Positions 8,618-48,423 of a stretch of 64,000 nucleotides of DNA are shown here, piece by piece. Made by a program: the position numbers and the translations under genes. The notes beneath the pieces were generated by a model. That model had not been told where the DNA came from, did no database searches, and saw only the letters and a program-made list of their open reading frames with translations. This stretch comes from Actinomycetes bacterium (GTDB lineage Bacteria; Actinomycetota; UBA4738; HRBIN12): NCBI GenBank assembly GCA_021155985.1, contig JAJNBA010000005.1, positions 61,855 to 125,854 of the forward strand. The letters run 5' to 3'. How positions within the stretch are numbered: the stretch's first letter is position 1; each line of letters begins with the position of its first letter.

Positions 8618-11732
<3,115 letters not shown>

Positions 11733-11735
11733 CCG

Positions 11736-12779
11736 ATGTCCGCGATCCGGATCCTGGCCGGGATGGGGGCCGCCGCGTTGGTCGTCCTCGCGGTGCGCGG
11801 CTACGACCGCAGGAACATCAGCCGGCTGAACCTGATCATCCTGTTCGGTCTGTGTGCGGCGGTCGCGGCGCTGGCGATCTATCCGCCGCTGTTCGATCCG
11901 ATCCTCCGCACGTTCGACTTCGAACGCGGTACCGACGGCGTGATCTTCGCCCTGCTCGTCGCCGTCTTCGTGCTGTTCTTCCTGTACCTCCGCGCCCAGA
12001 CCACGGCCGATACGAACGAGCGGAGCATCCGTCTGCTCGTCGAGGCGCTCGGTGAGGAACGGTTCGACTGGGATCGAGCGGAGGGCCTGCCGGACGGCCA
12101 GCGGCTCGTCACGATCTGCCCGGCGTTCAACGAGGCCGAGAACGTGGCGGCCGTGATCAAGCAGATCCCGGCGATGATCGAGGGCCATCACGTGGTCCCC
12201 GTCGTGGTGAGCGACGGCTCGACCGACGGGACGGCCGCCGTGGCGCGCGAGGCGGGCGCGTACGTCGCCGAGCTCCCGATCCGGCGGGGAGGCGGGCTGG
12301 CGCTCCGCGTGGGCTACGAGATCGCCTTGCAGCTCGGCGCCCAGATCGTGGTCACGCTGGATTCCGACGGACAGCATCTGCCCGAGGAGATCCCGATCGT
12401 GATCGCGCCGATCCTCGCAGGGGAGGCCGACTACGTGAACGGCTCACGGCTGCTCGGGTCGTTCGAGCGAGAGAGCGTCGTCCGGCACCTCGGCGTGCAC
12501 GTGTTCTCCCGCATCATCACGCTCCTCACCGGCCGCCGGATCACCGACCCCTCCTCCGGGTACCGGGCGGCGCGCGCCGACCTGCTCGAGCGCGTCGTGC
12601 TGAAGCAGGATCAGTTCTGGTCGACGGAGATCCTGATCGAGGCGCTGCGACATCGCGCTCGGGTCGTCGAGGTGCCGGTCACGTTCCTCGCCCGCGCCGG
12701 CGGAGAATCGAAGAAGCCGAAGTCCTTCCGCTACGGCTGGAACTTCCTGAAGGTCATCATCCAGACCTGGCTCCGGTAG
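11736..12779 (+). CDS. GT2 polyprenyl-phosphate glycosyltransferase (DPM1/GtrB/ArnC-like) with N-terminal TM segments
   Basis: 347 aa. ~3 N-terminal TM helices then a GT-A domain with CPAFNEAENV, VSDGSTDGT and DSDGQH (DxD) motifs typical of the dolichyl/undecaprenyl-phosphate sugar synthase family. Starts 3 nt after sqdB. Confidence 0.85.
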   Translation: MSAIRILAGMGAAALVVLAVRGYDRRNISRLNLIILFGLCAAVAALAIYPPLFDPILRTFDFERGTDGVIFALLVAVFVLFFLYLRAQTTADTNERSIRLLVEALGEERFDWDRAEGLPDGQRLVTICPAFNEAENVAAVIKQIPAMIEGHHVVPVVVSDGSTDGTAAVAREAGAYVAELPIRRGGGLALRVGYEIALQLGAQIVVTLDSDGQHLPEEIPIVIAPILAGEADYVNGSRLLGSFERESVVRHLGVHVFSRIITLLTGRRITDPSSGYRAARADLLERVVLKQDQFWSTEILIEALRHRARVVEVPVTFLARAGGESKKPKSFRYGWNFLKVIIQTWLR

Positions 12780-14534: not shown

Positions 14535-14584
14535 CGCGCCGAGGGTACCGGGAGAGACAGCGACCCGCGTCAGGACCGGCGCCG

Positions 14585-24134: not shown

Positions 24135-24183
24135 GGCCGCCGAGTGTATCGGCGGTGCTCAGGCGCCGTCGGCGCGGCCGACC

Positions 24184-25332
24184 TCAGTAGAGGAACATCG
24201 GCTTGCCGTCGACGTGGCGGATCTTCGGGCGATACTCGTCGGCGTCGTAGAGCGCGTCCACGTCGGCTCTCTTGACGCCCTGGCGGACGACCTCGAGCGG
24301 CACGTTCACGTAGCTGCCGTTCCGGAGCGCCACGAGTCGTCCGTGCGTTCCCTCGAGCAACAGATCCGCCGCCATCACCGCGTAGTTGATCGCCACCATC
24401 AGGTCGAGCGAGTCCGGCTGGCCCGAGCGCATCAGATAGCCGATCTGCTGGTAGATGATCCCCTCGCCGGTGATCTCCTTCAGGGCCTCGCCGGTCTGCG
24501 CGCCGATCCCGCCGAGCTTGCGATGGCCGTACGCGTCCGCGGTGCCGCCCATCACCATCTCGCCGCCGACGAAATGCGCGCCCTCCGAGATCGTGGTCAT
24601 CGCGTACCGCGACGGGTTCTTCCTCTTGTCGTCCATCAGGAACGTGGCGAGCTTCTCGACGTCGAACGGGACCTCGCTGATGATGGCGCGGTCCATCCCC
24701 GAGAGGTAGGCGGATACCAGCGAGGTCTCACCGCTGTACCGGCCGAACACCTCGACGACCGCCAGCCGCTCGTGCGACCCGGCGCTCGTGCGGAGCTGGT
24801 GGATGAAGATCACCGTGCGGGTGACCGCCGTGGAGAAGCCGATGCAGTAGTCGGTGCCGTGGACGTCGTTGTCCATCGTCTTCGGGACGGCCACCACGGG
24901 CACGCCCTCGTCGTGGAGCCGGAGCGCGAACGAGAGCGTGTCGTCGCCGCCGATCGGGATCATCGCGTCGATCCCGAGGTGGTCGAGCACCTTCATCACG
25001 TGGGACGTGTGGTCCCTGGCCTCGTCGTTGACTCGACCGGCCTTCAGGAAGTCGGGCTCGTCCGCGGCGCGGACCTTCGCCGGGTTCGTCCGCGACGTGT
25101 GCAGGATCGTGCCCCCGGTCCGGTCGATCGTTCGGACCACGTCGGGATCGAGCCGGACCGTGTGGGTGGCCGTGGAGGCCGGGTCGTCGGGGTCGAGTTC
25201 CAGCATGCCCCCCCAGCCGCGACGGATGCCGACGACATCGTGGCCCTCCTGGACGGCCCGGGTCGTCGCGGCCTTGATGCACGCGTTCAGGCCGGGGACG
25301 TCGCCGCCTCCCGTGAGGATGCCGATGCGCAT
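24184..25332 (-). CDS. 6-phosphofructokinase, long group-III form with PPi-type signature residues (GGDDT, PKTMDND)
   Basis: 382 aa. [41 protein letters not shown]. Confidence 0.85.
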
Positions 25333-25362
25333 GCGTCGACCCTACAACCGGCCCGCGTCGAC

Positions 25363-26391
25363 CTACCCGAAGAAGACCTCGGCCTCCCGATACAGCTCCA
25401 CCGGGACCAGGTTGCGCTCCGACACCGCCTCGGTGATCGGCACGTCGCGGATGTCCTGGGCCTTCCGCGCGACCATCCGGCCCCAGCCGCCCGCGGCCGC
25501 CAGGTCGGCGGCGGCGACACCGAACCGGGTGGCGAGGACCCGGTCGAACGAGACCGGCGTGCCTCCCCGCTGGACGTGGCCGAGGATCGTGACGCGCGTC
25601 TGGAACCCGGTCCGTTTCTCGATCTCGGGTGCCAGATGATTCGCGAGGCCGCCGAGCCTCGGGAAGCCGTTCTCGTCGAATGGGGCCTCCGGGAGCTCCA
25701 GCGTTCCGTCTGCAGGCACCGCACCCTCGGCGACCACCACGATCGAGAACGAGCTGCGGCTGGCGTGACGGTGGCGCAGGTGGTCGCAGATCCCGTCGAT
25801 GTCGAAGGGCTGCTCGGGGATCAGGATCGTGTCGGCTCCCCCGGCCATCCCCGCGTAGACGGCGATCCAGCCGGCGTACCGGCCCATGACCTCGACCAGC
25901 ATCACCCGGTCGTGGCTCTCCGCGGTGGTGTGGAGCCGATCGATCGCGTCCGTGGCGACCTGGACCGCCGTGTGGAACCCGACCGTGACGTCGGTCCCCG
26001 CGAGGTCGTTGTCGATCGTCTTCGGGATCCCCACGATGCGCACGCCCTCGTCCGCGAGCCGGACCGCGGCGCCGAGCGTCCCCTCGCCGCCGATCACGAT
26101 CAACCCGTCCAGCTCGTGCTCGGCGATGGTCGCGACGACGGTGGCGGGACCATCCTCGTGGCGGTAGGGGTTCGCGCCAGAGGAGCCGAGGATCGTCCCC
26201 CCGCGCGGCAAGATGCCGGTCGTGTCGGCGATCCCGAGCGGCTGGGTCGCGCCGTCGAGGACGCCACGCCACCCGTCCTGGAACCCAACGAACGCCATGC
26301 CGTGGAACCGGATGCCGCGGCGGACCACCGCCCGGATCACGGCGTTCAGTCCCGGGCAATCGCCTCCGCCGGTGAGGATCCCGAGGCGCAT
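25363..26391 (-). CDS. pfkA: 6-phosphofructokinase, actinobacterial ATP-type signature (GGEGT, PKTIDND)
   Basis: 342 aa. [41 protein letters not shown]. Tandem with the paralog at 24184..25332. Confidence 0.85.
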   Translation of the reverse strand: MRLGILTGGGDCPGLNAVIRAVVRRGIRFHGMAFVGFQDGWRGVLDGATQPLGIADTTGILPRGGTILGSSGANPYRHEDGPATVVATIAEHELDGLIVIGGEGTLGAAVRLADEGVRIVGIPKTIDNDLAGTDVTVGFHTAVQVATDAIDRLHTTAESHDRVMLVEVMGRYAGWIAVYAGMAGGADTILIPEQPFDIDGICDHLRHRHASRSSFSIVVVAEGAVPADGTLELPEAPFDENGFPRLGGLANHLAPEIEKRTGFQTRVTILGHVQRGGTPVSFDRVLATRFGVAAADLAAAGGWGRMVARKAQDIRDVPITEAVSERNLVPVELYREAEVFFG

Positions 26392-32804: not shown

Positions 32805-33767
32805 CTATCTCGGTCGTCGGTCGTCGCGACCCCTCCGACTCTGCACGTAGGAGAACCCGAACCGCCCCTTGATGCAGAGGTGGCCGCTCGTCACCGAGTG
32901 GTCCTCCGGCGACGATACCTTGACGATCTCGTTGTCTTGGACGTGCACTTCCAGCTCGCACCCCACGCCGCAGTACGGGCAGATCGTGTTCGTAACGGTC
33001 TGCGCGTCCTCGTCCCACGTCTCCTCCGCTCGCATGTCGTGCTCGGACTTGAACATCAGGGCACCGGTGGGACAGACACCGATGCAGTTCCCGCAGTACA
33101 CGCATGCGGACTCGTCCAGCGGCACGGCGAACTCCGTGGAGATCCTCGCGTCGAAGCCGCGACCTGCCACCGCGATCGCGAACGTGTTCTGCGCATCGAC
33201 CCCGCACGCTTCGACGCACTTGTAGCAGAGGACGCACCGCTCATAGTCGCGGACGTACAGCTCGTTGTCCACCTTCACGGGCTGGGCGACGGTCTCCGCG
33301 ATCGTCGGGTCGGGGTCATGATGGTGACCGGCCCACCGCTCGTCGCGCTCGCCGGTCTCCATCGGTTCCATCGCGGCCCCGTAGCGCGACGGATCCGCTC
33401 CGTACTCCCCCATCCATCGGAGCCAGTCGGTGGAGGCGAGGCTCGTGTCCACGCTCGAGGCGAGGAACTCCATCACGAGCTTCCGCGAATGGCGCACGCG
33501 CTCGGTATCGGTCTGCACCTTCATCCCGTCCTCGACGGGCCGGGAGCACGCCGGGACCAACACGCGCGAGCCCTCTACCTCGACCATGCAGACCCGGCAG
33601 GCGTTGACCGGCGTGAGGTTGCCCGCGTAGCACATCGTCGGTGTATCCACGCCCTCCGCCCGGCAGGCGTCCAGGATCGTCGCACCTTCGGGGGCCCGCG
33701 TCGTTCGACCGTCGATCTCCAGGTCGAGGAGCCGCCGGGGCCGGTCGAGCGGCACGGCCTGGCTCAC
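32805..33767 (-). CDS. Formate dehydrogenase alpha subunit, N-terminal Fe-S module (NuoG/FdsA-N-like: 2Fe-2S, 4Fe-4S ferredoxin domains and the FS0 CxxCxxxC...C motif)
   Basis: GTG 33767 overlaps the upstream stop (GTGA). MSQAVPLDRPRRLLDLEIDGRTT...CRVCMVEV..., CVLCYKCVEAC, CVYCGNCIGVCP, ICPYCGVGCELEVHV...GHLCIKGRFGFSYVQ. Ends exactly where the catalytic subunit (35694..37628) begins by alignment to E. coli FdhF. Confidence 0.8.
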   Translation of the reverse strand: MSQAVPLDRPRRLLDLEIDGRTTRAPEGATILDACRAEGVDTPTMCYAGNLTPVNACRVCMVEVEGSRVLVPACSRPVEDGMKVQTDTERVRHSRKLVMEFLASSVDTSLASTDWLRWMGEYGADPSRYGAAMEPMETGERDERWAGHHHDPDPTIAETVAQPVKVDNELYVRDYERCVLCYKCVEACGVDAQNTFAIAVAGRGFDARISTEFAVPLDESACVYCGNCIGVCPTGALMFKSEHDMRAEETWDEDAQTVTNTICPYCGVGCELEVHVQDNEIVKVSSPEDHSVTSGHLCIKGRFGFSYVQSRRGRDDRRPR

Positions 33768-35626
33768 GCGGCACCCCCGTCGAAGACGCCCAGCTTGGAG
33801 ATCGCGGACTGGACGGCGTTGGCCGCCGTCTGTCCGAGGCCGCAGATCGACGCGTCGCGCATCACCCGGGCCACCTCGTCGATCAGGGCGAGCTCGTCCT
33901 GGGCGGAGCCGATCGGGGTCCCCGCCACGAGCCGATGGAGCGCTTCCTCCTGCCGCACGGTTCCCACGCGGCACGGCACGCACTGCCCACAGCTCTCGTC
34001 GCGGAAGAACCGTGCGATCCGCAAGCACAGATCGACCAGGTCCGCGCGCTCGTCGAAGACCATGATCACGCCGGATCCGAGCGTGTAGCCGCCCTGTCGC
34101 GCGTCCTCGAACGTCAGCCTCGCATCGAGCATGTCCGGGCCCACGAACCCCCCGGCCGCTCCACCCAGCAGGACCGCCTTCAGCGTGCTCCCCCGAGGGA
34201 CACCGCCGGCGAGTGCGATCAGGTCGCGGACGGTCGCCCCGTGCTCGACCTCGTAGACACCGGGTCGCTCAACGGCACCGGAGAGACAGAACAGCCTGGG
34301 TCCGGTGGACCCCTCGGTGCCGATCGCAGCGTAGGCGTCGGCTCCGATCCGGAGGACCTCCAGGACGTTGATCAGGGTCTCCACGTTGTTGATCGCCGTC
34401 GGTCTGCCGAACACACCGAACGTGACCGGGAACGGCGGCTTGTTCCTCGGCTCTCCGCGCTTCCCCTCGAGCGAGTTGAACAGGGCCGTCTCCTCCCCAC
34501 AGATGTAGGCTCCGGCGCCGCGGCGGAGCTCGATGTCGAAGGTCCTGCCGCTGCCCATCACGTCGTCACCGAGGGATCCGTGCCGTCGCGCCTCTCCGAT
34601 CGCGTGCTCCATCCGCTCGGTCGCGAGCGGATATTCACCCCGGATGTACACGAAGCCTCGGTCGGCACCACACGCGAACCCCGCGACCGTCAACGACTCC
34701 ACCACAGCGAACGGGTCTTGCTCCATCACCACGCGGTCCTTGAACGTGCCCGGCTCGGACTCGTCGGCGTTGCAGACCACGTAGCGAGGCCCCGCGGGCT
34801 GGGTGGACACGGCCTGCCACTTGACGCCGGTCGGGAACGCGGCCCCGCCGCGACCCAGGAGCTTCGCTTCGGTGATGGCCTCGATCACGCGGCCTGGACC
34901 CATCTCGTACGCCGCGCGCAGCGCCTCGTACCCTCCGTGCGCGCGATAGTCGTCGATCGACGTGGGGTCGACGACGCCGGCGCGACGGAGCAAGCGCAGG
35001 CTGTCTCGGGATCCCGCATCCGCCGTCTGCGGAGCTCCCACGCCGCCGGCGCAGATGACGGCGGAGTCCGGCGCGACGACCTCGGCCACGGTCTCGCGCG
35101 TCGCGCCGCCGAGGGCGACCTCCGGTCGTCCCGCCCGCTGCGCGAAGACGGCCGGCGCCTGCTCGCACATGCCGAGGCACGGCGAACGGACCCACGTCCA
35201 GCCGCCGGCGTCTGCCCCTTCCGGCCCCGCGTCGCGCTCGAGCTCCCCGCAGAGGGCGAGGCCGCCGGCTCCCCTGCACGCGAGGTCGTCGCACACGTGG
35301 ACCACGTTGGCGGGTCGCTCCTCGACGCTGAACATCGCGTAGAACGTCGCCACGCCGTACGCCTCGGCCGGCGGAACGGAGAGCCGCTGGCACACGTAGT
35401 TCAGCCCTCCGCGGCTGATCCAGCCGACCCCCGCCTGGAGCGCGTGCAGGGCCGGCAGCAGCAGGTGCCGCTGCTCGCGCGCCTCGCGACCGGCGCGGAC
35501 GACGCGGAGATCGTCCGCGCTCCGCTCGGTGGCGCCCACCCAGCCGGTCTCCGGCGGCCCGAGGAGCCCGTCGACCGCGGCACGTTCTTCCGCGGTCGGC
35601 GCGGCCTCCATCAGATGCAGGTCCAC
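33764..35626 (-). CDS. NAD(H)-binding diaphorase subunit, fused NuoE-like (2Fe-2S thioredoxin-like) and NuoF-like (FMN, NADH, 4Fe-4S) domains (FdsG-FdsB fusion)
   Basis: 620 aa. CDDLACRGAGG...C...C NuoE motif, then GGAAFPTGVKW, GEYPLA, CGQCVPCR NuoF motifs. Confidence 0.85.
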   Translation of the reverse strand: MDLHLMEAAPTAEERAAVDGLLGPPETGWVGATERSADDLRVVRAGREAREQRHLLLPALHALQAGVGWISRGGLNYVCQRLSVPPAEAYGVATFYAMFSVEERPANVVHVCDDLACRGAGGLALCGELERDAGPEGADAGGWTWVRSPCLGMCEQAPAVFAQRAGRPEVALGGATRETVAEVVAPDSAVICAGGVGAPQTADAGSRDSLRLLRRAGVVDPTSIDDYRAHGGYEALRAAYEMGPGRVIEAITEAKLLGRGGAAFPTGVKWQAVSTQPAGPRYVVCNADESEPGTFKDRVVMEQDPFAVVESLTVAGFACGADRGFVYIRGEYPLATERMEHAIGEARRHGSLGDDVMGSGRTFDIELRRGAGAYICGEETALFNSLEGKRGEPRNKPPFPVTFGVFGRPTAINNVETLINVLEVLRIGADAYAAIGTEGSTGPRLFCLSGAVERPGVYEVEHGATVRDLIALAGGVPRGSTLKAVLLGGAAGGFVGPDMLDARLTFEDARQGGYTLGSGVIMVFDERADLVDLCLRIARFFRDESCGQCVPCRVGTVRQEEALHRLVAGTPIGSAQDELALIDEVARVMRDASICGLGQTAANAVQSAISKLGVFDGGAA

Positions 35627-35693: not shown

Positions 35694-37628
35694 TCACTCG
35701 CCGCCCCCGCCGCCGCTCGCGACGGCCGGTTCCTCGAGCTTCTCCACGCGGACCGCGGTCGCCTTGAACTCCGCCGTCCCCGACTTCGGATCCCAAGCGT
35801 CGATCGTGAGGTTGTTCACGTCCACCTGGTCGGGGAAGTGCAGCGTCATGAACAGGAGACCGGGTCGCAGGCCCAGGGCGAGCCGGACCGGCGCCACGAC
35901 CTCGCCTCGTCGGGAGAGAACCCGGACCCGCTCCCCCTCGCGGAGCCTGAGGCGCTCCGCGTCCTCCGGGGACATGTCCAGTGTCTCCTCGCGTCGGAGC
36001 GGCGAGGTGTACTCGCCGGTCTGCACGCCGGTGTTGTAGGAGTCCAACCGACGACCGGTGGTGAGCCGGAACGGGTAGTCCTCGTCGAGCTCGTCTACGG
36101 GGGGCTCGTAGAGCACGACGGAGAACGGCGCCTTCCTCCCCTGCTCTGCCGGATCCTCGGACCACAGCCGCCCATGGAGGAACGTCGTTCCGGGATGCTC
36201 GTCGTCCGGGCACGGCCATTGGATCCCACCGAGCTCCTCGAGCCGCTCCCACGCCATCCCGGCGTGCATCGGCGACAGGCGCCGGACCTCCTCCCACACG
36301 TCGTGAGCGGAAGGGTCGCCCCAGTCGTGCCCCAGTCGAGCGGCGAGCTGCGCGATGATCCAGATGTCGTCCCGGGCATTCCCCGGTGGTTGCAGCGCGG
36401 GCCGCACGCGTTGCACGCGCCGCTCGCTGTTCGTCACGGTCCCCTCCGATTCGAACGCCGAGTTCGCCGCCGGCAGCACGACGTCGGCCATCTCCGCGGT
36501 GTGCGTCAGGAAGATGTCCTGGACGATCAGGATGTCGAGGTTGGCCAGGAGCTTGTGCGTGCGCTGGTTGTCGGCCTCGGAGGCCGCCGGGTTCTCTCCG
36601 ATCACGTAGAGCGCTGTGAGCTCGCCTTCCTCCATCGCCTCGAACATCTGGGAGAGATGCCACCCCTTCTTGGGGTTGATCTTCGATCCCCACTCCTGCT
36701 CGAAGCGAGCCCGCACGACATCGTTCTCGACCTCCTGGAAGCCGGTCAGGTGGTGAGGGATCGCGCCCATGTCGCCACCGCCCTGGACGTTGTTCTGGCC
36801 CCGCAGCGGGTTCAGCCCCGATCCGTACGTCCCCACGTGCCCGGTCAGAAGGCCGAGGTTGATCAGGGCCAGCACGTTGTCGGCGGCGTTGTGATGCTCC
36901 GTGATCCCGAGGGTCCAACAGATCATGGCGCGGTCCGCCTTGGCGTAGGCGTGCGCCACCTCGCGGATCACGTCCGCCGGGATCCCGGTGACCTCCGCGC
37001 CCCGCTCGAGCGTCCAGTCCATCACCGAGGCCACGTAGTCATCGAAGTCCGTCGTCGCGAGCTCGATGAACGCGCGGTGATGCAGATCGTTCACGATGAT
37101 CTCCCGAGCCATCGTGTTCGAGAGCGCGATGTCGGTCCCGACATCCAGGCCGAGCCAGAGGTCGCCCCACTCGGCGGACTCGGTGCGGCGGGGGTCGACG
37201 ACGATCAGTCGCATGCCCTTGTGGATCCCCTTCAGGACATGGTGGAAATAGATCGGGTGCGCCGCCCGGGCGTTCGAGCCCCAGAGCATCATGAGGTCGA
37301 CGTGCTCGACCTCCTCGTATGAGCTGGTACCGCCTCCGGCACCGAAGACCGTGGCCAGACCGACCACGCTCGGCGCGTGTCAGGTGCGGTTGCAGCTGTC
37401 GATGTTGTTGCTGCCGAGGGCCTGACGGAAGAACTTCTGGGCTGCGAAGTTCATCTCGTTCGTGGCCTTCGAGCAGCTGAACAGGCCGACCCCCGTGCCG
37501 CCGTGACGCTCCGTGGCGGCCCGCAACCCGTCGGCGGCCCGGTCGAGGGCCTCCTCCCAGGTCGCGACGCGCAGCTCGCCGTCCTCGCGCACCATCGGCT
37601 CGGTGAGTCGGGTGAGCCCGTTCGGCAT
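35694..37628 (-). CDS. fdhA: Formate dehydrogenase catalytic (molybdopterin) subunit, selenocysteine-containing; in-frame TGA at 37380..37382 read as Sec
   Basis: ATG 37628 with AGGGAG Shine-Dalgarno (MPNGLTRLTEPMVREDG...). ...GSNNIDSCNRT-TGA-HAPSVVGLATVFGAGGG aligns with E. coli FdhF ...NNVDCCARV-U-HGPSVAGL. Track ORFs 37380..38246 and 35694..37367 are the same frame split only by this TGA. Downstream RGQNNVQGGGDMG and other bis-MGD domain motifs present. Confidence 0.8.
37336..37358 (-). promoter_or_regulatory. Candidate bacterial SECIS hairpin downstream of the FDH UGA
   Basis: mRNA 5'-CUGG(C)CAC GGUCUUCG GUGCCGG-3' starts about 24 nt after the UGA. 7-bp stem with one bulge and a GGUC-containing apical loop, as in fdhF-type SECIS elements. 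Confidence 0.45.
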
Positions 37629-37754
37629 CCCGCTCCCTTCTGGTCGTGCTGGCCGTCGATCAGCAGCCGGACGTCCCGGCCGCACGGCGATTCTAGGCCC
37701 CTGCGGTGCCCCCGGGATGGGAGTTGGAACGCCGCGCCGTCTACCGTGTGCGGG

Positions 37755-38558
37755 ATGACCGAGCGTGGCTCCACGCGGGAACGTGCCCGCGAGCGGGGAG
37801 GCCTCCTGGATCGCCTGCGAGGCCGGAGGTCGCGGATCTCGCCCCACCCCGGCCCGGTGGACGCGGAGCAGGACGCGTCCACCAGCAAGTCGGGGGCGCT
37901 CCGCGCCGCGATCTTCGGGATGAACGACGGGCTCGTGTCGAATCTCTCCCTCATCTTCGGCGTGGCCGGATCGGTCGTGGAGCGTGACGTGGTGGTCATC
38001 GCCGGGATCGCCGGTCTTCTCGCGGGAGCGTTCTCGATGGCGGCAGGCGAATACGTCTCGATGAAGGTGCAGCGGGAGGTCTTCGAGCAACTGATCCACA
38101 GGGAGGCCCATGAGATCGCCACGCAGCCCGAGGAAGAGCTGCAGGAGCTCGCGGCGATCTACGAATCCAAGGGCATCGGGGCGGAGACCGCGGCGACGAT
38201 CGCCGCCGAGCTGATGAAGGATCCGCAGATCGCGCTGGCGACGCACGCACGCGAGGAGCTCGGGATCGACATGGAGGAGGGCCTCGGCTCCCCGTGGGCG
38301 GCCGCCGGATCCTCGTTCGGGACGTTCGCGATCGGTGCCGCGGTCCCGCTCCTGCCCTTCCTGTTCACGTCGGGCGGCTCGGCGGTCGCCGTCTCCGCCG
38401 GCCTCTCGGGGGTGACCCTGTTCGCCGTGGGCAGCGCGATGACCGTGCTCACCGGTCGGAGCGCGTTGTTCTCGGGCGCGCGGATGCTCGCGATCGGCGC
38501 GGTCGCCGCGACGATCACGTACGGGGTCGGCGCCCTACTGAACGTGGCCGTCTCTTAG
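37755..38558 (+). CDS. VIT1/CCC1-family (vacuolar iron transporter-like) membrane protein
   Basis: Real start ATG 37755 (MTERGSTRERA...); upstream part of track ORF 37377..38558 is antisense to fdhA. FGMNDGLVSN motif and C-terminal TM helices. Divergent from fdhA, convergent with fdhD (4-nt overlap). Confidence 0.8.
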   Translation: MTERGSTRERARERGGLLDRLRGRRSRISPHPGPVDAEQDASTSKSGALRAAIFGMNDGLVSNLSLIFGVAGSVVERDVVVIAGIAGLLAGAFSMAAGEYVSMKVQREVFEQLIHREAHEIATQPEEELQELAAIYESKGIGAETAATIAAELMKDPQIALATHAREELGIDMEEGLGSPWAAAGSSFGTFAIGAAVPLLPFLFTSGGSAVAVSAGLSGVTLFAVGSAMTVLTGRSALFSGARMLAIGAVAATITYGVGALLNVAVS

Positions 38559-39403
38559 TTCGCGTCTCCGACACGTTCGGGATGCGTGTACACGTTCAGC
38601 CGCTCATCGCGGACGAAGCCGACCAGCGTCATGCCGAACCGCTCGCCCGCCTCCACCGCGAGGGATGAGGGCGCGCTCACCGCGCTCACGATCGGGATGC
38701 CGGCGACCGCCGCCTTCTGCACGATCTCGAAGGAGAGCCGGCCACTCACCTGGAGGACGTGGTCCGCGAGCGGGACTCGACCGGCCAGCACCTGCTCCCC
38801 CACGACCTTGTCCACGGCGTTGTGACGGCCCACGTCCTCTCGGACGGAGACGACGCGACCGTCCGGGGAGAAGAGACCGGCTGCGTGGAGGCCCCCCGTC
38901 CGTTCGAAGACCTTCTGGGCCTTCCGGAGTGCATCGGGAAGGCCGAGCAGAGTGGCGGCATCGACGGTCGTTCCGGTGGCGACTGGGGCGCACCGGACCT
39001 CGATGTCGTCGAGGGCCGCCTTGCCACACACCCCGCAGGACGAAGTGGCGTAGAAGTTCCGCTTGAGACGGTCGAAGTCGAACGGCCGCACGAGCGTGAC
39101 CGAGACGATGTTGTACTGCTGATCCTCGCCGGGGAGCGTGTCGCAGTAGGCGACCCGGCTCACGTCCCCGGGCACGATCAGGCCCTCGGTGAACAGGAAG
39201 CCCACGGCGAGCTCGAAGTCGCCACCAGGGGTCCGCATGGTGACGGCCACGGAGCGCTGTTCCTGACCAGGGCCTTGCACACGGATCTCGAGCGGCTCCT
39301 CGGCGGCCAGGGTGTCGGTCCGCTCCGAGCGGACCCCGTCGTTCATCGCGACGACGTGCACGTTCGCGATGTTCCGGCGGAGAGGCTGCGCTGCGGTCGC
39401 CAT
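38555..39403 (-). CDS. fdhD: Formate dehydrogenase accessory sulfurtransferase
   Basis: 282 aa from ATG 39403 (MATAAQPLRRN...). FdhD motifs SSCGVCGKAAL, DVGRHNAVDKV. Confidence 0.85.
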   Translation of the reverse strand: MATAAQPLRRNIANVHVVAMNDGVRSERTDTLAAEEPLEIRVQGPGQEQRSVAVTMRTPGGDFELAVGFLFTEGLIVPGDVSRVAYCDTLPGEDQQYNIVSVTLVRPFDFDRLKRNFYATSSCGVCGKAALDDIEVRCAPVATGTTVDAATLLGLPDALRKAQKVFERTGGLHAAGLFSPDGRVVSVREDVGRHNAVDKVVGEQVLAGRVPLADHVLQVSGRLSFEIVQKAAVAGIPIVSAVSAPSSLAVEAGERFGMTLVGFVRDERLNVYTHPERVGDAN

Positions 39404-39932: not shown

Positions 39933-41147
39933 CTAGTGGGAGACGGCGGCGGCGGCGATCTCGGAGACGAGCTCTCGCTTCCAGAACCGCTCCAGCGCGA
40001 ACGGCGCGATCAGATCGGGGACCTGGTTGTCGGCGATGAGGTCGGCCATCGTGACGCCGACGATCGGTGTGGCTTTGAAGCCGTAGGTTCCCCAGCCGCC
40101 GTCGATCAGGAAGCCCTCCACGTCCGTGAGGCCCATGATCGGCGAGTAGTCGGGCGTCACGTCGCAGAGCCCTCCCCAGGCTCGCATGAGTTTCACCTTG
40201 CCGAGCATCGGGAGGAGCTCGAGGGAATGGGCCGCCGTGACCTCGAGGAAGTCGAGCGTCGACTCCTGCGAGTACGACGTGTAGGGCTCGATCTCCGAGC
40301 CGATCAACACCTCGCCCCGGTCGGTCTGCGAGATGTACACGTGCAGCGTGGCCGAGACCAGGATCACATCGAGGAAGGGCTTCAGCGGCTCCGTCACGAA
40401 CGCCTGCAGCGGGTGCGTGACGATCGGCGTCTCCACCCCCGCCATGCGGCAGACCTCGCTCGTCCATCCCGCCACCGCCGAGATGACGATGCCCGCGGCG
40501 ATGTCGCCCCGGTTCGTCCGGACGCCGGTGACGCGACCGTCGCGGACGTCGATGTCGGTCACGTCGGTGCCCTGATGGATGTGCACACCCATCCGGTCGG
40601 CCATCCGCGCGTACGCCCAGACGACGGCGTCGTGGCGGATCACGCCCCCCGGCGGGTGGTAGAGCGCGGCCATGATCGGGAAGTCGGGGTGGGTGGAGAG
40701 ATCGAGCTCCGGGCAGAGCTTCGCGATCTCGTCCGGGTAGATCACCCGCGAGTCCACGCCGAGGAGCCGGTTCACCTCTGCGCGCTCGTGCGCGACGATC
40801 ACGGCGCGCTCGGCATGGGCGAGGGTCAGGTGGCCCTCCTGGGAGAGCAGGAGGTTGTAATCCAGCTCCTGCGCGAGCTGCTCGTAGAGCCGGAGGGACT
40901 CCTTGTAGAAGGCCACGCCCTCCGGCGTTCGGTAGTTCGCCCGGACGATCGTCGTGTTGCGGCCGGACCCGCCGGCGCCGATGTAGCTCTTGTCGAGGAC
41001 CGCGACGTCGCGGATGCCGCGCTTCGCCAGCTCGTAGGCGATCGCGAGCCCGTGGGCGCCGCCGCCGACGATCACGACGTCGTAGGCATCCTTCATCTCG
41101 TGACGGCGCCACATCCGCCACGGCCTGAAGTACCGGATCGGGTGCAT
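39933..41147 (-). CDS. soxB: Heterotetrameric sarcosine oxidase beta subunit family (SoxB; could equally be N-methylglutamate dehydrogenase subunit)
   Basis: 404 aa from ATG 41147 (MHPIRYFRPWRMW...). FAD motif DVVIVGGGAHGLAIAYELA. ATGA overlap with the soxG stop. Confidence 0.85.
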   Translation of the reverse strand: MHPIRYFRPWRMWRRHEMKDAYDVVIVGGGAHGLAIAYELAKRGIRDVAVLDKSYIGAGGSGRNTTIVRANYRTPEGVAFYKESLRLYEQLAQELDYNLLLSQEGHLTLAHAERAVIVAHERAEVNRLLGVDSRVIYPDEIAKLCPELDLSTHPDFPIMAALYHPPGGVIRHDAVVWAYARMADRMGVHIHQGTDVTDIDVRDGRVTGVRTNRGDIAAGIVISAVAGWTSEVCRMAGVETPIVTHPLQAFVTEPLKPFLDVILVSATLHVYISQTDRGEVLIGSEIEPYTSYSQESTLDFLEVTAAHSLELLPMLGKVKLMRAWGGLCDVTPDYSPIMGLTDVEGFLIDGGWGTYGFKATPIVGVTMADLIADNQVPDLIAPFALERFWKRELVSEIAAAAVSH

Positions 41148-41773
41148 CAGCGCCAGCCTTCCGCTCGGAGGGCCTGCCACCCGGCCGGCGCGCCGCCGAG
41201 GCTCGTCACGATGCCCGAGAGCGTCTCCCACACGTACCGGCCGAACTCTGTGGCCACGAACACCTCGAGGAGGGGGAACGGGAGTTCGCGGCGGACCAGC
41301 AGCGCCCGGACCTCGGCGATCGGTGCGCCGGCCGCCGCGCCCGGCGGAAGGGTCGAGGGATCCCACGAAGTGGCACGCTGGACCACCTCCGGCAACGCCG
41401 GCCCGGCCAGCGCCACGCCGGCGAACAGGTGGGTCACGTCGGTCACCATCGCCCCGGCCCCGGCGACGGGTTCGATCGCCCGGATCAGCCTCCCTTCCGC
41501 GTCTGGCGCTCCGAGCAGCACCGCCCACTCCGCCGAGATCCGCGCGAGGACGGTGTCGGCCGGCGAGGGCAGCGCCTCCGGGATGCGGCCCCGGATGTCC
41601 ACCTTGGCGCGTGCCGTGATGTCCGCGATCGCCACGCGATCGCGGATCGCCGCGCGCTCCTCCGCGTGGTTCCCGTACGAGGCGGGGATCTCCCATCCCG
41701 CCTCCTCCACGAACACCGCCCCGCGGCGCGACGACAGCCGCGCCGCGGGTGAGCGCCGGATGGCCGTGCTCAC
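41147..41773 (-). CDS. soxG: Sarcosine oxidase gamma subunit family
   Basis: 208 aa from GTG 41773 (overlaps the soxA stop as GTGA). SoxG-like sequence ...VSTAIRRSPAARL...FGRYVWETL.... Confidence 0.7.
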   Translation of the reverse strand: MSTAIRRSPAARLSSRRGAVFVEEAGWEIPASYGNHAEERAAIRDRVAIADITARAKVDIRGRIPEALPSPADTVLARISAEWAVLLGAPDAEGRLIRAIEPVAGAGAMVTDVTHLFAGVALAGPALPEVVQRATSWDPSTLPPGAAAGAPIAEVRALLVRRELPFPLLEVFVATEFGRYVWETLSGIVTSLGGAPAGWQALRAEGWR

Positions 41774-44580
41774 GACCGGAGCCTCTCGCCGCGCGGGTCG
41801 TAGAACGGATCGATCCGGACCGTTCCGATCGTGTGGCTCCCGCCGAACTGGATCTCGAACGTGCTGCCGTCCGCGGCCCACTCCGCGGGCACCCACGCCA
41901 GCCCGACCACGCCACCGACGGCCTCGCTCCGCCTCGCCGAGGTGACCCGGCCGACCCACGCTCCCTCGCGCACCACGGACGCGCCTTCGGGCGGCAGCCA
42001 GCGCTCCGGCGCCGTGAACCCGACGAGCCGCTCGAGCGGGCCCCGCTCCTTCAAGTCGCGGAGCGACCGCAGACCGAGGAAGTCCTCCTTGTCGTCCTTC
42101 ACCATCCAGCCGAGCCCCGCCTCGTAGGGATCGGATTCGGCGTCCGTGTCCTGTCCCACGAGGATGTGCTGCTTCTCCAGGCGGAGGATCCGCTGGGCCT
42201 CCAGACCGAAGGCGACGATCCCGTGGGAGCGACCGGCCCCCATCACGGCGTCCCACAGGTGCTCGCCGTAGGCGGACGGGAAGTGGATCTCGTAGCCCGT
42301 CTCCCCCACGAAGCCGATCCGCAGCACCAGCGAAGGCACGTCCGCCACCGCCATCCTGGTCGCGGTCATGTACGGCATCGCCGACCCGGAGACGTCCGCG
42401 TCCGTGAGCGAGGTCATCACGTCGCGGGCTCGGGGCCCGGCCAGGTTGACGGCCCCGTAGGCCCCCGTCACGTTCAGGATGAGCGCGTCGAGGCCCCAGT
42501 CCGCGTTCCACCAGGTGATCCATCGTTCCAGCGCGGCCGTGTTCCCCGTCGTCACCGTGACGAAGAACTCATCGTCGGCCAGGCGAACGACGGCTCCGTC
42601 GTCGAGGATGACTCCCTCGTCGTTGAGCATCACGCCGTACCGGACCCGTCCCACGGCGAGGTCCGAGAACCGGTTCGGGTAGAGCCGTTCGAGGAGCTCG
42701 ACCGACTCGGGGCCTTTGATCCGGAACGTGCCGAGGGTGCTCACGTCGATCAGGCCGACTCGGTTTCGGACGGCGGCGACCTCCGCTTCGGGGGTCGTGT
42801 AGTGGTGAGGACGTCGCCAGTCCCCGGCCCACATGAACTCCGCGCCCGCGGCGACGTGCCGGTCGTGCATCGTCGTCTCCTTGCGCGGGGTGAGCCGGGC
42901 GCCGGCCAGCGTGCCCATCTCCACCGGTACCCACGGCGGCCGCGACGTGGTGGGCGACGTCTCGGCGAAGGACCGGCCCGTGATTGCGCCGCAGAGTCGT
43001 TGCGACGAGGCCATGCACGCCTTCCCCTGACAGGGGCCCATCGTGATCGTCGTGTAGCGCTTGAGGAGCTCCATCGAGTCGAACCCCTCGGCCGCGGCCG
43101 TCGTGAGCTCCTTCGCGGTCACGTCCATGCAGACGCAGGCGAACTGTTTCCCGGACGCCGCCGATGCCTCCGGCGGTAGGACGATCGGGTCTCCGGATCG
43201 AGCGGCCTCGCTCCGGAGTGCCGCGATCGACGCCGCGTCCACCGGGTGTCCCGATCCCGCCGCTGCCTCGAGACCCGCGAGCCTTCCTTGCGCCACGGAG
43301 GCCTCCGGAGAGCGGGCCCCCGCCACCGCCCCCACGGCCCACATGCGATCGGGCATCTCGTCCGGGAGGAAGGCCTGCAACGTCTCATCGAAGACCAAGC
43401 GCGCTCCGGCCTGCGCGAGGAGGTTCGTGGACGGCGTCTGCACGCAGGCGTTCACGACGAGATCGCAGGAGACCTTCTGCCCCGACGTCGCGCCGACGGT
43501 GCCGACGGACACGGCGCTCACCCGCCGCCGCCCGTGCGCGGACAGGATCGTGGCTCCGGCGAACACCGGGAACCCCTCCGGCCAGCCACCGTCGGAGCGG
43601 AGATCGACGACCGTCACCTCCGCTCCGGCGTCCTTCAGGGCCCAGGCGGTCGAGTAGCCGACGTTGTCGCCGGTGAGGACCACCGCCCGCCGGCCGGGGA
43701 GCACGCCGTAGCGGTGGAGCAGCAGATGCACGGCGGACGAGAGCATCACGCCGGGAAGGTCGTTGCCGGGGAACACCGCGGATCCCTCGACCGCCCCCGT
43801 GGCGAAGATCACGTGTTGGGCGCGGATCCGATACAGGGCGTCCGGCCCCGACGCCCCGATCAGCCCGCCACCGAAGACCCCGAACGCCGCCGTCTCCGCC
43901 AGGAACCGTGCTCTTGACCCGAGGGCTTCCCGCGCGAGCGCCGATCGGAGGGTGCTGCTCGCTTCCCCCAGGAGGTGGCCGCCGGCCTCGCGGCCCTGGT
44001 CGAGCAGGACGACCGATGCCCCCGCCTTCGCGGCCTCGGCCGTGGCCGCGAGGCCGGCCGCCCCGGCACCGATCACGAGGACGTCGGGGTGCAGGTTGAT
44101 CCGCCGGCGCCGCCGGTGATCGGGCTCCTGGGGCACCCTGCCCAGCCCGGCCTTCGAACGGATGTAGGGCTCCACGAGGGGCCATGCCCAGTGAGGGTGC
44201 TGGAAGATCTTGTAGTAGAAGCCCGGCGGCATCATGAACGAGAACGTGTTCAGCCATCCGTGGATGTCCCGGTCGGCGGAGGGCCATGCGTTCTGGCGTT
44301 CGACCCGCATGCCTTCCCGCGCGGGCTCGGTACAGGCGCGCACGTTGGGGATCCCGTCGATCTGCATCAGGCAGTTCGGGCACGAACCCGTCATGCACGA
44401 CAGCCCGCGGGGCCGGTGGTACTTGAACGACCGACCCGTGATCGTGACGCCCGCCGCCGCCAGCGCCGATCCCACGGTGTCCCCTTCGAACGCGGCGATC
44501 GTCCTGCGCTCGAGCCGGAACCTGATCCGCCGGTCGCGCCGGATCGCTTCGCCCTGACGCGCCGGGAGACGTTCGCTCAC
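41770..44580 (-). CDS. soxA: Sarcosine oxidase alpha subunit family
   Basis: 936 aa from GTG 44580 (GTGA overlap with the soxD stop). GDTVGSALAAAGV...SFKYHRPRG, NAD/FAD dinucleotide fold VLVIGAGAAGLAA, C-terminal folate-binding GcvT-like domain. Confidence 0.85.
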   Translation of the reverse strand: MSERLPARQGEAIRRDRRIRFRLERRTIAAFEGDTVGSALAAAGVTITGRSFKYHRPRGLSCMTGSCPNCLMQIDGIPNVRACTEPAREGMRVERQNAWPSADRDIHGWLNTFSFMMPPGFYYKIFQHPHWAWPLVEPYIRSKAGLGRVPQEPDHRRRRRINLHPDVLVIGAGAAGLAATAEAAKAGASVVLLDQGREAGGHLLGEASSTLRSALAREALGSRARFLAETAAFGVFGGGLIGASGPDALYRIRAQHVIFATGAVEGSAVFPGNDLPGVMLSSAVHLLLHRYGVLPGRRAVVLTGDNVGYSTAWALKDAGAEVTVVDLRSDGGWPEGFPVFAGATILSAHGRRRVSAVSVGTVGATSGQKVSCDLVVNACVQTPSTNLLAQAGARLVFDETLQAFLPDEMPDRMWAVGAVAGARSPEASVAQGRLAGLEAAAGSGHPVDAASIAALRSEAARSGDPIVLPPEASAASGKQFACVCMDVTAKELTTAAAEGFDSMELLKRYTTITMGPCQGKACMASSQRLCGAITGRSFAETSPTTSRPPWVPVEMGTLAGARLTPRKETTMHDRHVAAGAEFMWAGDWRRPHHYTTPEAEVAAVRNRVGLIDVSTLGTFRIKGPESVELLERLYPNRFSDLAVGRVRYGVMLNDEGVILDDGAVVRLADDEFFVTVTTGNTAALERWITWWNADWGLDALILNVTGAYGAVNLAGPRARDVMTSLTDADVSGSAMPYMTATRMAVADVPSLVLRIGFVGETGYEIHFPSAYGEHLWDAVMGAGRSHGIVAFGLEAQRILRLEKQHILVGQDTDAESDPYEAGLGWMVKDDKEDFLGLRSLRDLKERGPLERLVGFTAPERWLPPEGASVVREGAWVGRVTSARRSEAVGGVVGLAWVPAEWAADGSTFEIQFGGSHTIGTVRIDPFYDPRGERLRS

Positions 44581-44867
44581 GCGGGCGCGGCCTCCTGCTC
44601 CTCGTCCCGCGGGCGGTCCTGCGGCCGGTACGTCCGCCGGATCTCGTTCGTCGTCGTGTGCCGCTCCGCCAGGAACCACGCCCGACAGCCACTCTGGTGC
44701 ACCCACCACTCGGTCTGCCAACCGTTCACGTTCCGGCGGAAGTACAGGGCGGCGGCCAGTTCCCGGTCGGTCGCCGACGGGCTCGCGCGGCGGGTGGTCT
44801 CGCCGCCGAAGGAGAACTCGAGGGCCTCGCGCGGCCCGCAGTTCGGACACGTGATCAGGAAGGTCAC
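44577..44867 (-). CDS. soxD: Sarcosine oxidase delta subunit family
   Basis: 96 aa (track ORF 44577..44867), GTG start. MTFLITCPNCGPREALEFSFGGE...WQTEWWVHQSGCRAWF matches the SoxD zinc-binding fold. Confidence 0.8.
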   Translation of the reverse strand: MTFLITCPNCGPREALEFSFGGETTRRASPSATDRELAAALYFRRNVNGWQTEWWVHQSGCRAWFLAERHTTTNEIRRTYRPQDRPRDEEQEAAPA

Positions 44868-45222
44868 CCCGCTCCTCCGATCCCGGCCTCGTCCGAGCGC
44901 CGAGGACGCGCGTGAGACTATCGCGTCGCCACCTGGGCATGTACAACAGCCACCAGCCTGCCATCGCGATCAGCGCCAGCGGGAACAGAGGCCGGTCGGT
45001 GAGCGTCGCAAGCAGCACGACACCGAGCCCGATCGCGCTCCCCAGCACCATCGCCTGGATCCGGAATCCGCGCATGTCGCGCATCACGCCTTCATATTCC
45101 TCGGCGGGGATCTGACTCGTGTCCCATCGACGTCCACACGAAGGGCACGTCCAGGTTTCGCCGTACGGGATCCGCTCTACGGCCGTGCAGTCGCACGTCA
45201 CGGTGATCGGTGGACCCTTCAC
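44868..45222 (-). CDS. Possible zinc-ribbon / two-TM small protein whose frame has no stop before running into soxD (frameshift or artefact)
   Basis: First ~118 codons of track ORF 41770..45222: MKGPPITVTCDCTAVERIPYGETWTCPSCGRRWD... then two hydrophobic helices. High GC3 up to exactly the soxD start, after which the frame turns Arg/Pro-rich. Confidence 0.3.
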
Positions 45223-47014: not shown

Positions 47015-48418
47015 ATGACAGACAAGATGTGGGGTGGCGAGCCGTTCTGGGGCCTCGGATACGACTGGGATCCCGATTGGGTCTACACGGACAAGCAGAA
47101 GGAGCTGCGCGCCACCCTGATCGAGCTCTGCGAGAAGGAGCTCCGCGCCAACGCCAAGCGCTTCGACGACGAGCTGATGTTCCCCCGTCGCAACCTGGAG
47201 CTTCTCGGCGAGCACGGCTTCCTCGCGCTGACGGTGCCGGAGGGATACGGAGGCCTGGGCGAGAACCACGTCGCCTACTCGATGGTCTGCGAGACGATCG
47301 CGCGGTACGGCTGCGCGTCGACCGCGATGTGCTACGTGATGCACATGGGCGCGGTGAACGCGATCATGCTGCGCGCCACCCCCGAGCTGATCGACAAGTA
47401 CATCCGACCACTCAACTCCGGCAAGATCGGCACGCTCTCCTACTCCGACCCCGAGACGGGCTCGCACTTCTGGTACCCGATCTCCTCCGGCGCCGAGCGC
47501 TCGAACGGCGGCTTCAAGGTTCGGAAGAAGGCATCGTGGACCACGTCGGGGGGCTTCGCCGACTTCTACGTCGTGCAGACCACCAGCCCGGATTTCTCCG
47601 GCTACGACGACCTGTCGGTCTTCGTCGTCGACGGCGAGCACATCCAGGCGCAGCCGTCGCTGTGGGATGCGCTCGGGCTCCGGGGCAACCAGTCGGGGCC
47701 GATCGAGATCGACAACATCGAGATCCCGGCGGAGCAGCTCGTCGGCCCGACCGGCGACGGCGCGAACTCGAACGACGAGTCCGTGGACCCCTGGTTCCTG
47801 GTGGGCTCCGCGTCGGTGTGGAACGGCCTGGCCCTCGGAGCGATCGACATCGCGAAACGCCACACCACGCGCAAGAAGCACGTCGATGTCGGACTGCGGG
47901 TGGCGGACTACCCGACCATCCAGGACTACGTCGGCGAGGCGGTGATGGACACGAACGCCTCGCGGCTGTTCACGCTGTCCGTCGCCCAAGCGATGGACGG
48001 CGCCACGGAGAACAACACGGTGAACCCCGGCCCGGGTGAGCTGGCCCGTGGGAACTTCCTCCACTGGGCGTGGCAGATCAAGTTCGAGGCGGCGAAGAAC
48101 ACCGCGCACGTCGTCGACAAGATGCTCCACGCCTGCGGGGGCTCCGGCTACAAGCGCGACATGGAGCTCGAGCGCTACCTCCGGGACGCGAAGGCCGGCT
48201 GGGTGATGGGCCCGACGAACGAGGTGCTCCGCCAGTTCGTCGGCAAGGCCGTGCTGCTGGGTTTCGACTCCCTCGACTACTGGAACCAGTCCTACAATCG
48301 ACGGGCCGTGGAGAACGAGGTCAAGAAACTCGACGCCGCCGGCAAGCGGGAGCTCGCCGAGCAGCTGTTCAAGGAGGCCGACGAGCAGGCGTCGAAGGAA
48401 CCGGCGGCCAAGGGCTGA
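47015..48418 (+). CDS. Acyl-CoA dehydrogenase family protein
   Basis: 467 aa. ACAD three-domain pattern (N-terminal helical, middle beta, C-terminal helical; ...YKRDMELERYLRDAK). GGAGG Shine-Dalgarno. Confidence 0.8.
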   Translation: MTDKMWGGEPFWGLGYDWDPDWVYTDKQKELRATLIELCEKELRANAKRFDDELMFPRRNLELLGEHGFLALTVPEGYGGLGENHVAYSMVCETIARYGCASTAMCYVMHMGAVNAIMLRATPELIDKYIRPLNSGKIGTLSYSDPETGSHFWYPISSGAERSNGGFKVRKKASWTTSGGFADFYVVQTTSPDFSGYDDLSVFVVDGEHIQAQPSLWDALGLRGNQSGPIEIDNIEIPAEQLVGPTGDGANSNDESVDPWFLVGSASVWNGLALGAIDIAKRHTTRKKHVDVGLRVADYPTIQDYVGEAVMDTNASRLFTLSVAQAMDGATENNTVNPGPGELARGNFLHWAWQIKFEAAKNTAHVVDKMLHACGGSGYKRDMELERYLRDAKAGWVMGPTNEVLRQFVGKAVLLGFDSLDYWNQSYNRRAVENEVKKLDAAGKRELAEQLFKEADEQASKEPAAKG

Positions 48419-48423
48419 GGCCG

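Follow-up and report, generated by a model that had tools for sequence, protein, structure and literature searches.

Does the gene for a formate dehydrogenase (FDH) in an uncultured soil lineage of Actinomycetota end at an in-frame TGA, or is this codon read as selenocysteine (Sec)? The question is raised by the 64,000-nucleotide (nt) stretch of DNA analysed here (the window; all coordinates are window positions), which stems from a metagenome-assembled genome (MAG) and carries on its minus strand two neighbouring open reading frames (ORFs), 37380..38246 and 35694..37367. An initial annotation had placed the TGA that ends the first ORF at the Sec site of FdhF, and had proposed that a hairpin resembling a selenocysteine insertion sequence (SECIS) follows it. 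From comparison with related genomes, we consider it very probable that this UGA—codon 83 of the gene for an FDH catalytic subunit—is a selenocysteine codon accompanied by its SECIS, and that the two 'ORFs' are one gene.

Read through the TGA, the FDH gene extends on the minus strand from 37628 to 35694, with 644 sense codons, UGA as codon 83 and a terminal TGA stop at 35696–35694. As initially annotated, the internal TGA (37382–37380) lies in the context SNNIDSCNRT-*-HAPSVVGLATVFGAGGG, and the frame 3′ of it runs on into ORF 35694..37367, with no further stop until 35694; the predicted Sec-bearing stretch of the catalytic subunit reads T-U-HAPSVVGLATVFGAGGGTSSYEEVEHVDLMMLWGSNAR. ORF 37380..38246 belongs to the gene only in part: its last 82 codons are coding, whereas the remainder is non-coding and overlaps a divergent VIT1-family gene on the plus strand. 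The start is an ATG at 37628 with GAAGGGAG just before it, and the GC content at the three codon positions shows the frame to be coding from about 37630 down to 35694; past 37630, the signal shifts to the plus-strand gene. Public annotation confines the catalytic gene to 35694..37367, that is, to a protein of 557 amino acids (aa; NCBI MCD6020661.1).

Translation and matches to Pfam, NCBIfam and the PDB identify the product of 35694..37628 (minus strand) as a predicted Sec-containing FDH catalytic subunit of Mo/W-bisPGD type (Mo, molybdenum; W, tungsten; PGD, pyranopterin guanine dinucleotide). Pfam recognizes the Molybdopterin (E 8e-68) and Molydop_binding (E 1.4e-26) domains in it, and did not find a Molybdop_Fe4S4 (FS0) domain in this subunit. 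The top NCBIfam model, TIGR01591 (FDH alpha), aligns over profile positions 52–672 of 672 with 636.3 bits, a score below the curated cutoff of 666.25, and formate_DH_Act stayed below its threshold (163.7 bits vs a cutoff of 1400). The best PDB matches are all FDHs, with E values from 1e-146 to 1e-121: 7bkb_D (E 1e-146), FdhF of the hydrogen-dependent CO2 reductase (HDCR; 7qv7_S), Methylobacterium extorquens FDH1 (7e5z_A), Rhodobacter capsulatus FdsA (6tg9_A) and Escherichia coli FDH-H (1aa6_A, E 7e-121). These alignments begin at about residue 60, or at residues 310–370, of the matched chains. The translation holds U83-H84 and RGQ (LNPLRGQNNVQG), and a U/C-H pair together with RGQ defines the active site of FDHs (PMC8808070). 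Judging from its domain content and its NuoEF-type partner (see below), the gene product is probably the catalytic subunit of a cytoplasmic FDH linked to NAD(H).

How well does the TGA (37380..37382, minus strand) coincide with a known Sec site? Both the fdhF sequence of the E. coli MG1655 record and the PDB alignments place it, codon for codon, at Sec140 of FdhF, which bears out the position proposed initially. The contexts compare as SCNRT-U-HAPSVVGL in the window and CARV-U-HGPSVAGL in E. coli FdhF, whose TGA is codon 140. In addition, the base after UGA83 is C, giving UGAC as in E. coli fdhF. Read as Sec, residue 83 would thus provide the ligand of the Mo/W atom.

For comparison, we used 80 loci from species-representative genomes—MAGs of uncultured Actinomycetota in which the gene shows 73–95% protein identity—so that 81 sequences, the window included, underlie the counts given below. 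The homologous codon is TGA in 80/80 of these genomes, and neither another stop nor a sense codon occurs there. Upstream of it, the 82 codons are free of stops in 81/81 sequences, and an ATG stands at the equivalent place in 76 of the 81. Diversity at codon positions 1, 2 and 3 of this segment amounts to 0.14, 0.12 and 0.27, which argues that these 82 codons are translated and under selection. Codons +1 to +4, which encode His-Ala-Pro-Ser, separate the TGA from the annotated GTG start (37367); their amino acids are invariant, their third positions are free, and Ser alternates between AGC and TCN. That the amino acids are held despite synonymous change indicates that translation passes through the UGA in frame.

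These patterns bear directly on the possibility that the TGA is a genuine stop, leaving either a pseudogene or an additional split of the enzyme into an 82-residue peptide and a 557-residue protein that starts at GTG 37367. NCBI and JGI gene callers annotate the locus in exactly this manner; moreover, no stop is commoner in the window than TGA, the window's lineage truly splits the alpha subunit at another point, and Sec machinery was not found near the gene (in the window and the flanks of the 80 relatives). Yet purifying selection on both sides of the TGA, at 73–95% identity, rules out a pseudogene, and a split protein would lack both the metal ligand (Sec/Cys) and the essential His84. A true stop would also sit poorly with the retention of His-Ala-Pro-Ser through synonymous changes, the AGC–TCN exchanges of Ser among them, and with 81 sequences in which neither TAA nor TAG ever takes the place of TGA. 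The codons upstream of GTG 37367 are fixed by constraints from both protein and hairpin, and the ortholog with Cys at this position is one continuous protein of 646 aa. We therefore judge a genuine stop very unlikely and retain UGA83 as a Sec codon.

The truncated gene model is widespread in databases. Among the best 120 clusters of a protein-database search (69–100% identity; NCBI, JGI/IMG, ENA and Logan), 119 are not full-length; most measure 550–565 aa and all of them cover only 78–86% of the query, which indicates that gene callers cut the gene at the TGA. P0001 (identical to MCD6020661.1), P0011 and P0119 begin with MVGLATV, and the truncated clusters mostly start at Val88. Such products are devoid of the Sec ligand, of His84 and of the first 87 residues altogether.

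Could the TGA instead be a sequencing or assembly error for TGC or TGT, and the residue a plain Cys? The source is a MAG, and in several related loci from long reads the gene for the iron–sulfur (Fe–S) subunit probably contains frameshift errors. The same TGA, however, recurs in 80 independent assemblies, which stem from many projects, as well as in over 100 protein clusters (JGI, ENA, NCBI and Logan), and we consider the chance of an error at this codon negligible. A reassignment of the UGA codon was likewise considered and ruled out: TGA is the normal stop of 12 of the 23 Pfam-supported genes in the window, the catalytic gene's own end included. UGA83 is thus a site-specific recoding event rather than the product of an altered code.

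In a scan of the window for stops that lie in frame between stretches of coding composition, UGA83 was the sole flagged site inside a protein domain. The scan also flagged TGA 11730–11732 on the plus strand, between the same-frame ORFs 10557..11732 and 11736..12779; here an ATG follows one codon later, and the site most likely separates two adjacent genes and does not reflect recoding. Two further positions, 45577 and 54015 (both on the minus strand), were flagged as well.

If the UGA is decoded as Sec, a SECIS should be recognizable in the RNA. From an alignment of 66 nt around the TGA (window and 80 loci), RNAalifold predicted, unguided, a hairpin of two stems, which we interpret as a bacterial SECIS element at 37339..37376 (minus strand). 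Counting the U of UGA as nt 1, its lower stem GCGCC/GGUGC pairs nt 7–11 with nt 40–44 (37376–37372 with 37343–37339), its upper stem GUGGUC/GGCCAC pairs nt 16–21 with nt 27–32 (37367–37362 with 37356–37351), and an internal loop or bulge region separates the two. The apical loop, GGUCU (nt 22–26; 37361–37357), is invariant in 81/81 sequences. The initial annotation was right that a SECIS-like hairpin follows the UGA, but had let its hairpin begin about 24 nt downstream; the SECIS starts 4 nt past the UGA, and it is the loop that occupies nt 22–26.

The hairpin is supported by covariation. Standard pairs make up 99.9% of 682 alignment cells, and both partners have changed in 41 cells, vs 0 when the partners are slid by 1–2 columns; the covariation score was matched by 0 of 500 shuffles. 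The pair nt 18–30 is G-C in 59 sequences and C-G in 22, and the pair nt 9–42 occurs as U-A, G-U, A-U, G-C and C-G, plus one mismatch. When mapped on a neighbour-joining tree of the gene body (1.5 kb), the states of pair 18–30 require at least 11 changes and those of pair 9–42 at least 13, so compensation has been recurrent and does not go back to one inherited event. Each of the two covarying columns falls on third positions of four-fold degenerate codons.

Other third positions are frozen. At codons +6 to +8 (GTC GGT CTG), of which the upper end of the stem and the loop consist, the third position is the same in 81/81 sequences, even in GGT, the loop Gly codon, where it is four-fold degenerate; four other Gly codons just downstream show a diversity of 0.47–0.74. 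The loop presents GGUC at nt 22–25, inside the same Gly-Leu codons, in both the window and E. coli fdhF. In the E. coli and Moorella systems, SelB makes contact with G23 and U24. By analogy, SelB would contact G23 and U24 of the SECIS in the window. The presence of a conserved apical-loop G is also a criterion by which bacterial SECIS elements have been recognized (PMC1794560).

A different stem, CUGGCCAC/GUGCCGG, had been named as the SECIS in the initial annotation. This complementarity (37358–37336) is present in the window sequence, and its CUGGCCAC arm is shared with the 3′ arm of the SECIS upper stem. We rejected it as the SECIS: only 81% of its alignment cells are paired, it shows no covariation, and two of its seven pairs are broken in 37/62 and 44/62 distinct sequences, respectively. 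The minimum-free-energy fold of the window sequence likewise uses the SECIS at 37376–37339, not the CUGGCCAC/GUGCCGG stem.

A separate observation concerns the immediate surroundings of the UGA. The codons AAC CGC ACC UGA CAC (−3 to +1; 37371–37391, minus strand) are invariant in 81/81 sequences; codons near the UGA vary, while the third positions of CGC (−2) and ACC (−1) are fixed. The fixed context hints at a constraint that goes beyond the protein sequence here and may relate to recoding efficiency or to extra pairing. RNAalifold also returned weak pairs between the columns of the UGA context and alignment columns 52–59.

What becomes of the hairpin when Sec is not used? The answer comes from P0102 (locus L083), a protein of 646 aa with 69% identity to the window product and the sole full-length protein among the best 120 clusters. 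Its codon at the position of UGA83 is TGC (Cys). An ortholog carrying Cys, for which the initial annotation had suggested to look, thus exists at 69% identity, next to TGA in 80/80 relatives. At the SECIS site, L083 reads GGC CTC GAC: three of six upper-stem pairs and two of five lower-stem pairs are broken, and the loop is changed. P0102 resides in the same operon of FdhD, Mo subunit, NuoEF and Fe–S subunit, with formate–tetrahydrofolate ligase (FTHFS) nearby, and differs from the window in having TGC for TGA and degraded SECIS stems and loop. As far as these sequences tell, L083 is a natural control, in that a Cys form with the same operon has lost the hairpin.

Several findings weigh against UGA83 as a Sec codon and have to be set against this evidence. 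Unlike the E. coli element, the SECIS has no bulge at U17: this base pairs with A31 in 80/81 sequences (U-G in one), and the sole irregularity of the upper stem is a U20–G28 wobble instead. Its folding energy is not below that of shuffled sequence (53-nt fold, z = −0.5). Folding energy is uninformative in sequence of 70% GC; given this z score, the case for the hairpin rests on comparative data and not on thermodynamics. Rfam gave no match to the hairpin when the whole window was searched at gathering score, and at E ≤ 10 the region 37250–37450 returned chance-level matches on the opposite strand only, with no SECIS or tRNA-Sec family among them.

The remaining objection is that the decoding machinery was not found in the searched sequence, that is, in the 64-kb window and ±10 kb around the gene in the 80 relatives (about 1.4 Mb of flanks). 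There, tblastn did not detect selA, selB or selD with either of two query sets: E. coli SelA/B/D (confirmed for SelA, 100% identical to an E. coli record) and SelA/B/D from an Arthrobacter plasmid island with the order fdh-selD-selC-selA-selB. ARAGORN did not find a tRNA-Sec in the window or in the 80 loci, and found no tRNA of any kind in the window, whereas it detected tRNA-SeC in the Arthrobacter plasmid locus that served as positive control. In many Sec users with a single selenoprotein, the Sec genes flank fdhA (PMC1794560), which makes their absence near the FDH gene mildly unexpected. Clearly, the Sec machinery is not linked to the FDH gene in the window's lineage, as far as ±10 kb in 80 loci. 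A protein-database search with Arthrobacter SelA was uninformative on this lineage: the named sources among the best 120 matches are all Micrococcaceae.

The same result leaves room for recoding of the UGA to something other than Sec, be it Cys, brought in on a tRNA-Sec-like tRNA-Cys(UCA) together with a SelB-like factor, or the product of near-cognate read-through stimulated by the hairpin. Systems in which a selC* tRNA-Cys is able to decode UGA as Cys are known (PMC5389517); the sequence reveals recoding and a SelB-type hairpin, not which amino acid is inserted; and Sec genes were missing from the window and flanks. Against this, descriptions of selC*/selB* come from Deltaproteobacteria and from a few metagenomic contigs, but not from Actinobacteria, and genomes with selC*/selB* also hold a complete Sec system (PMC5389517). 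For the insertion of Cys, a plain Cys codon would be simpler and is what the relative P0102 uses, and the retention of the costly combination of UGA and SECIS by 80 species points to a Sec-specific catalytic benefit. Canonical Sec-FDHs with full machinery are, in addition, common in Actinobacteria (PMC13449736; Arthrobacter, Micrococcaceae). We thus give recoding to another amino acid only a slight chance and continue to favour Sec at codon 83.

The broader distribution of Sec fits this choice. FdhA is the most widespread bacterial selenoprotein, present in 67 of 75 Sec-using genomes (PMC1794560). The initial annotation had deemed Sec uncommon in Actinobacteria, a view that does not hold: about 40% of 244 mycobacterial genomes encode Sec machinery together with a Sec-FDH (PMC13449736), SelA is widespread in Micrococcaceae, and Arthrobacter plasmids carry Sec islands. 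An unusual tRNA-Sec of the 8/4 type has been reported in Actinobacteria (PMC5389517).

If the UGA is read as Sec, in which enzyme complex would the residue act? Directly downstream of the Mo subunit gene lies a NuoE–NuoF fusion (33764..35626, minus strand), a diaphorase partner predicted to hold a 2Fe-2S cluster, a site for flavin mononucleotide (FMN) and NAD(H), and a 4Fe-4S cluster (Pfam 2Fe-2S_thioredx, Complex1_51K, SLBB and NADH_4Fe-4S; NCBIfam nuoF_fam and nuoE_fam). The GTG start of the next gene overlaps the NuoEF stop (GTGA). This gene, 32805..33767 (minus strand), encodes an Fe–S subunit of 320 aa with NuoG-like 2Fe-2S and 4Fe-4S domains and the FS0 domain (Pfam Fer2_4, Fer4_7 and Molybdop_Fe4S4), and its sequence displays CxxCxxxC...C and the CIKG lysine. 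The C-terminus of the Fe–S subunit matches positions 1–50 of the TIGR01591 profile and the catalytic gene takes up positions 52–672. The alpha subunit is thus split and permuted, its FS0-bearing part being encoded two genes downstream of the catalytic part, past NuoEF. About 70 loci, and also the Cys-form locus L083, keep the order catalytic gene, NuoEF, Fe–S gene. A limited, non-exhaustive literature search turned up no description of such a split FdsA architecture.

As a side observation, tblastn matches to the Fe–S subunit are broken into 2–3 pieces in different frames in five loci (L006, L017, L049, L062 and L076; at about 13800–14800 in locus coordinates). These breaks are most likely indel errors of the assemblies and not real frameshifts.

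Upstream of the catalytic gene, fdhD (38555..39403, minus strand; Pfam FdhD-NarQ, NF001943 with 315.9 bits vs a cutoff of 269) encodes a predicted sulfurtransferase for maturation of the FDH Mo/W cofactor, and an fdhD is found upstream of the FDH gene in 73/80 loci. In the window, the VIT1-family gene for a putative Fe/Mn transporter (37755–38558, plus strand; Pfam) intervenes between the two. This arrangement is seen in 18/80 loci only, all in the clade nearest the window; L083 and most of the other loci have fdhD directly upstream of the FDH gene.

From these parts, a route from UGA to NADH can be sketched. As the ribosome nears, SelB with Sec-tRNA(Sec) would bind the apical part of the SECIS, and UGA83 would be decoded as Sec by SelB delivery, in competition with release factor 2. 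Sec83, His84 and the Arg of RGQ would form the formate-oxidising Mo/W active site, as Sec140, His141 and Arg333 do in E. coli FdhF, with FdhD presumably sulfurating the FDH cofactor. Electrons may then pass from the active site to the FS0 [4Fe-4S] cluster and the further Fe–S clusters on the 320-aa Fe–S protein, and from there onward to the FMN/NAD+ site of the NuoE–NuoF fusion.

Where would the formate come from? By domain content, blocks of one-carbon (C1) and sarcosine genes lie at 39933–45222 (minus strand), 48070–50763 (plus), 58899–61958 (plus) and 23079–26391 (minus). They include sarcosine oxidase alpha- and beta-like genes, a DUF1989–GCV_T fusion, GCV_T proteins, FTHFS and a beta-eliminating lyase; two phosphofructokinase paralogs are also part of this neighbourhood. 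FTHFS neighbours the FDH operon in 47/80 loci. Given the folate-C1 and sarcosine genes in the window and the recurrent proximity of FTHFS, the enzyme likely serves to oxidise formate released by folate-linked C1 and sarcosine catabolism. In the window, the FTHFS gene has a long open N-terminal reading frame ahead of it, which is probably non-coding.

Taken together, the locus might represent a Sec-dependent, NAD(H)-linked FdsA-type enzyme of undescribed architecture, with the alpha subunit split after FS0 and its parts in permuted order, in 80 or more species of soil Actinomycetota that are uncultured and apparently aerobic and in which the Sec machinery is unlinked and perhaps non-canonical. 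We put this wider proposal forward tentatively, as one that is somewhat less likely to hold in full than to need revision; the thought of a non-canonical machinery derives from the 8/4-type tRNA-Sec mentioned above.

Recoding of this kind is well known, and gene callers routinely mis-annotate it as a truncated gene; the splitting of Sec-FDH genes at the UGA by annotation pipelines has been described (PMC13449736). Here, Sec is probably part of a cytoplasmic FDH of the FdhF/FdsA type, from a lineage of Actinomycetota that is abundant and uncultured, unlike the mycobacterial selenoenzymes, which are membrane enzymes of the FDH-O type. More than 100 database clusters, MCD6020661.1 among them, hold a truncated form of 554–558 aa without the metal ligand, although the predicted true product is a selenoprotein of 644 aa, and metabolic reconstructions of this soil lineage should count a selenium requirement. 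Speculatively, a Sec-containing NAD-linked FDH from presumed aerobes could be of interest for enzymatic CO2 reduction.

How, finally, does the predicted enzyme relate to characterised ones? E. coli FdhF belongs to the same enzyme family (1aa6, E 7e-121), has its UGA at the homologous codon and shares the U-H and RGQ motifs; its SECIS resembles that of the window in the UGAC context and in the loop GGUC at nt 22–25. In FdhF, however, FS0 is part of the same polypeptide, whereas it is encoded by a separate gene in the window, and FdhF feeds hydrogenase 3, whereas the window enzyme has a NuoEF-type partner. The hairpins differ, too: in the window, the loop measures 5 nt, a U-G wobble is present but not a bulged U17, and the lower stem is GC-rich and 5 bp long.

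In its subunits, the enzyme is closer to FdsABG and FDH1. The alpha subunits of R. capsulatus (FdsA, 6tg9) and M. extorquens (FDH1, 7e5z/7vw6) match over residues ~310–985 with E values of 1e-123 to 1e-129, the FMN-binding partner is of the NuoE/NuoF type—fused as in the M. extorquens beta subunit—and both systems have NuoG-like 2Fe-2S/4Fe-4S domains and an adjacent maturation gene of the fdhD/fdsC type. Characterised FdsABG/FDH1 enzymes use Cys. The window enzyme differs in its UGA, predicted to encode Sec, at the active site, and in its alpha subunit, a single chain of ~960–990 aa in FdsABG/FDH1 but two genes in reversed order around NuoEF in the window.

Within the same phylum, Sec-FDH islands are known from mycobacteria (fdhA–fdoG, FDH-O type; PMC13449736) and from the Arthrobacter sp. 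YA7-1 plasmid pYA7-1a (L084; NZ_CP110115.1, 19387–44589). The latter carries, next to an FDH-N/O-type Sec-fdh, 4Fe-4S and NrfD genes, selD, tRNA-Sec, selA and selB on a conjugative plasmid, with a transposase of the Tn3 family, a recombinase and an integrase on its flanks; it offers a ready vehicle for the horizontal spread of Sec among Actinobacteria. As in the window, an in-frame UGA in these islands interrupts FDH alpha and is followed directly by a SECIS, and annotation tends to split the alpha gene in two. The differences lie in linkage and enzyme type. The islands adjoin selD-selC-selA-selB, whereas the window type is free of sel genes within 10 kb in 80 genomes, and their alpha subunits of ~1060–1110 aa are FDH-N/O-type proteins with 4Fe-4S and NrfD-type membrane subunits, whereas the enzyme encoded in the window is, by its predicted composition, cytoplasmic and of the FdhF/FdsA type.

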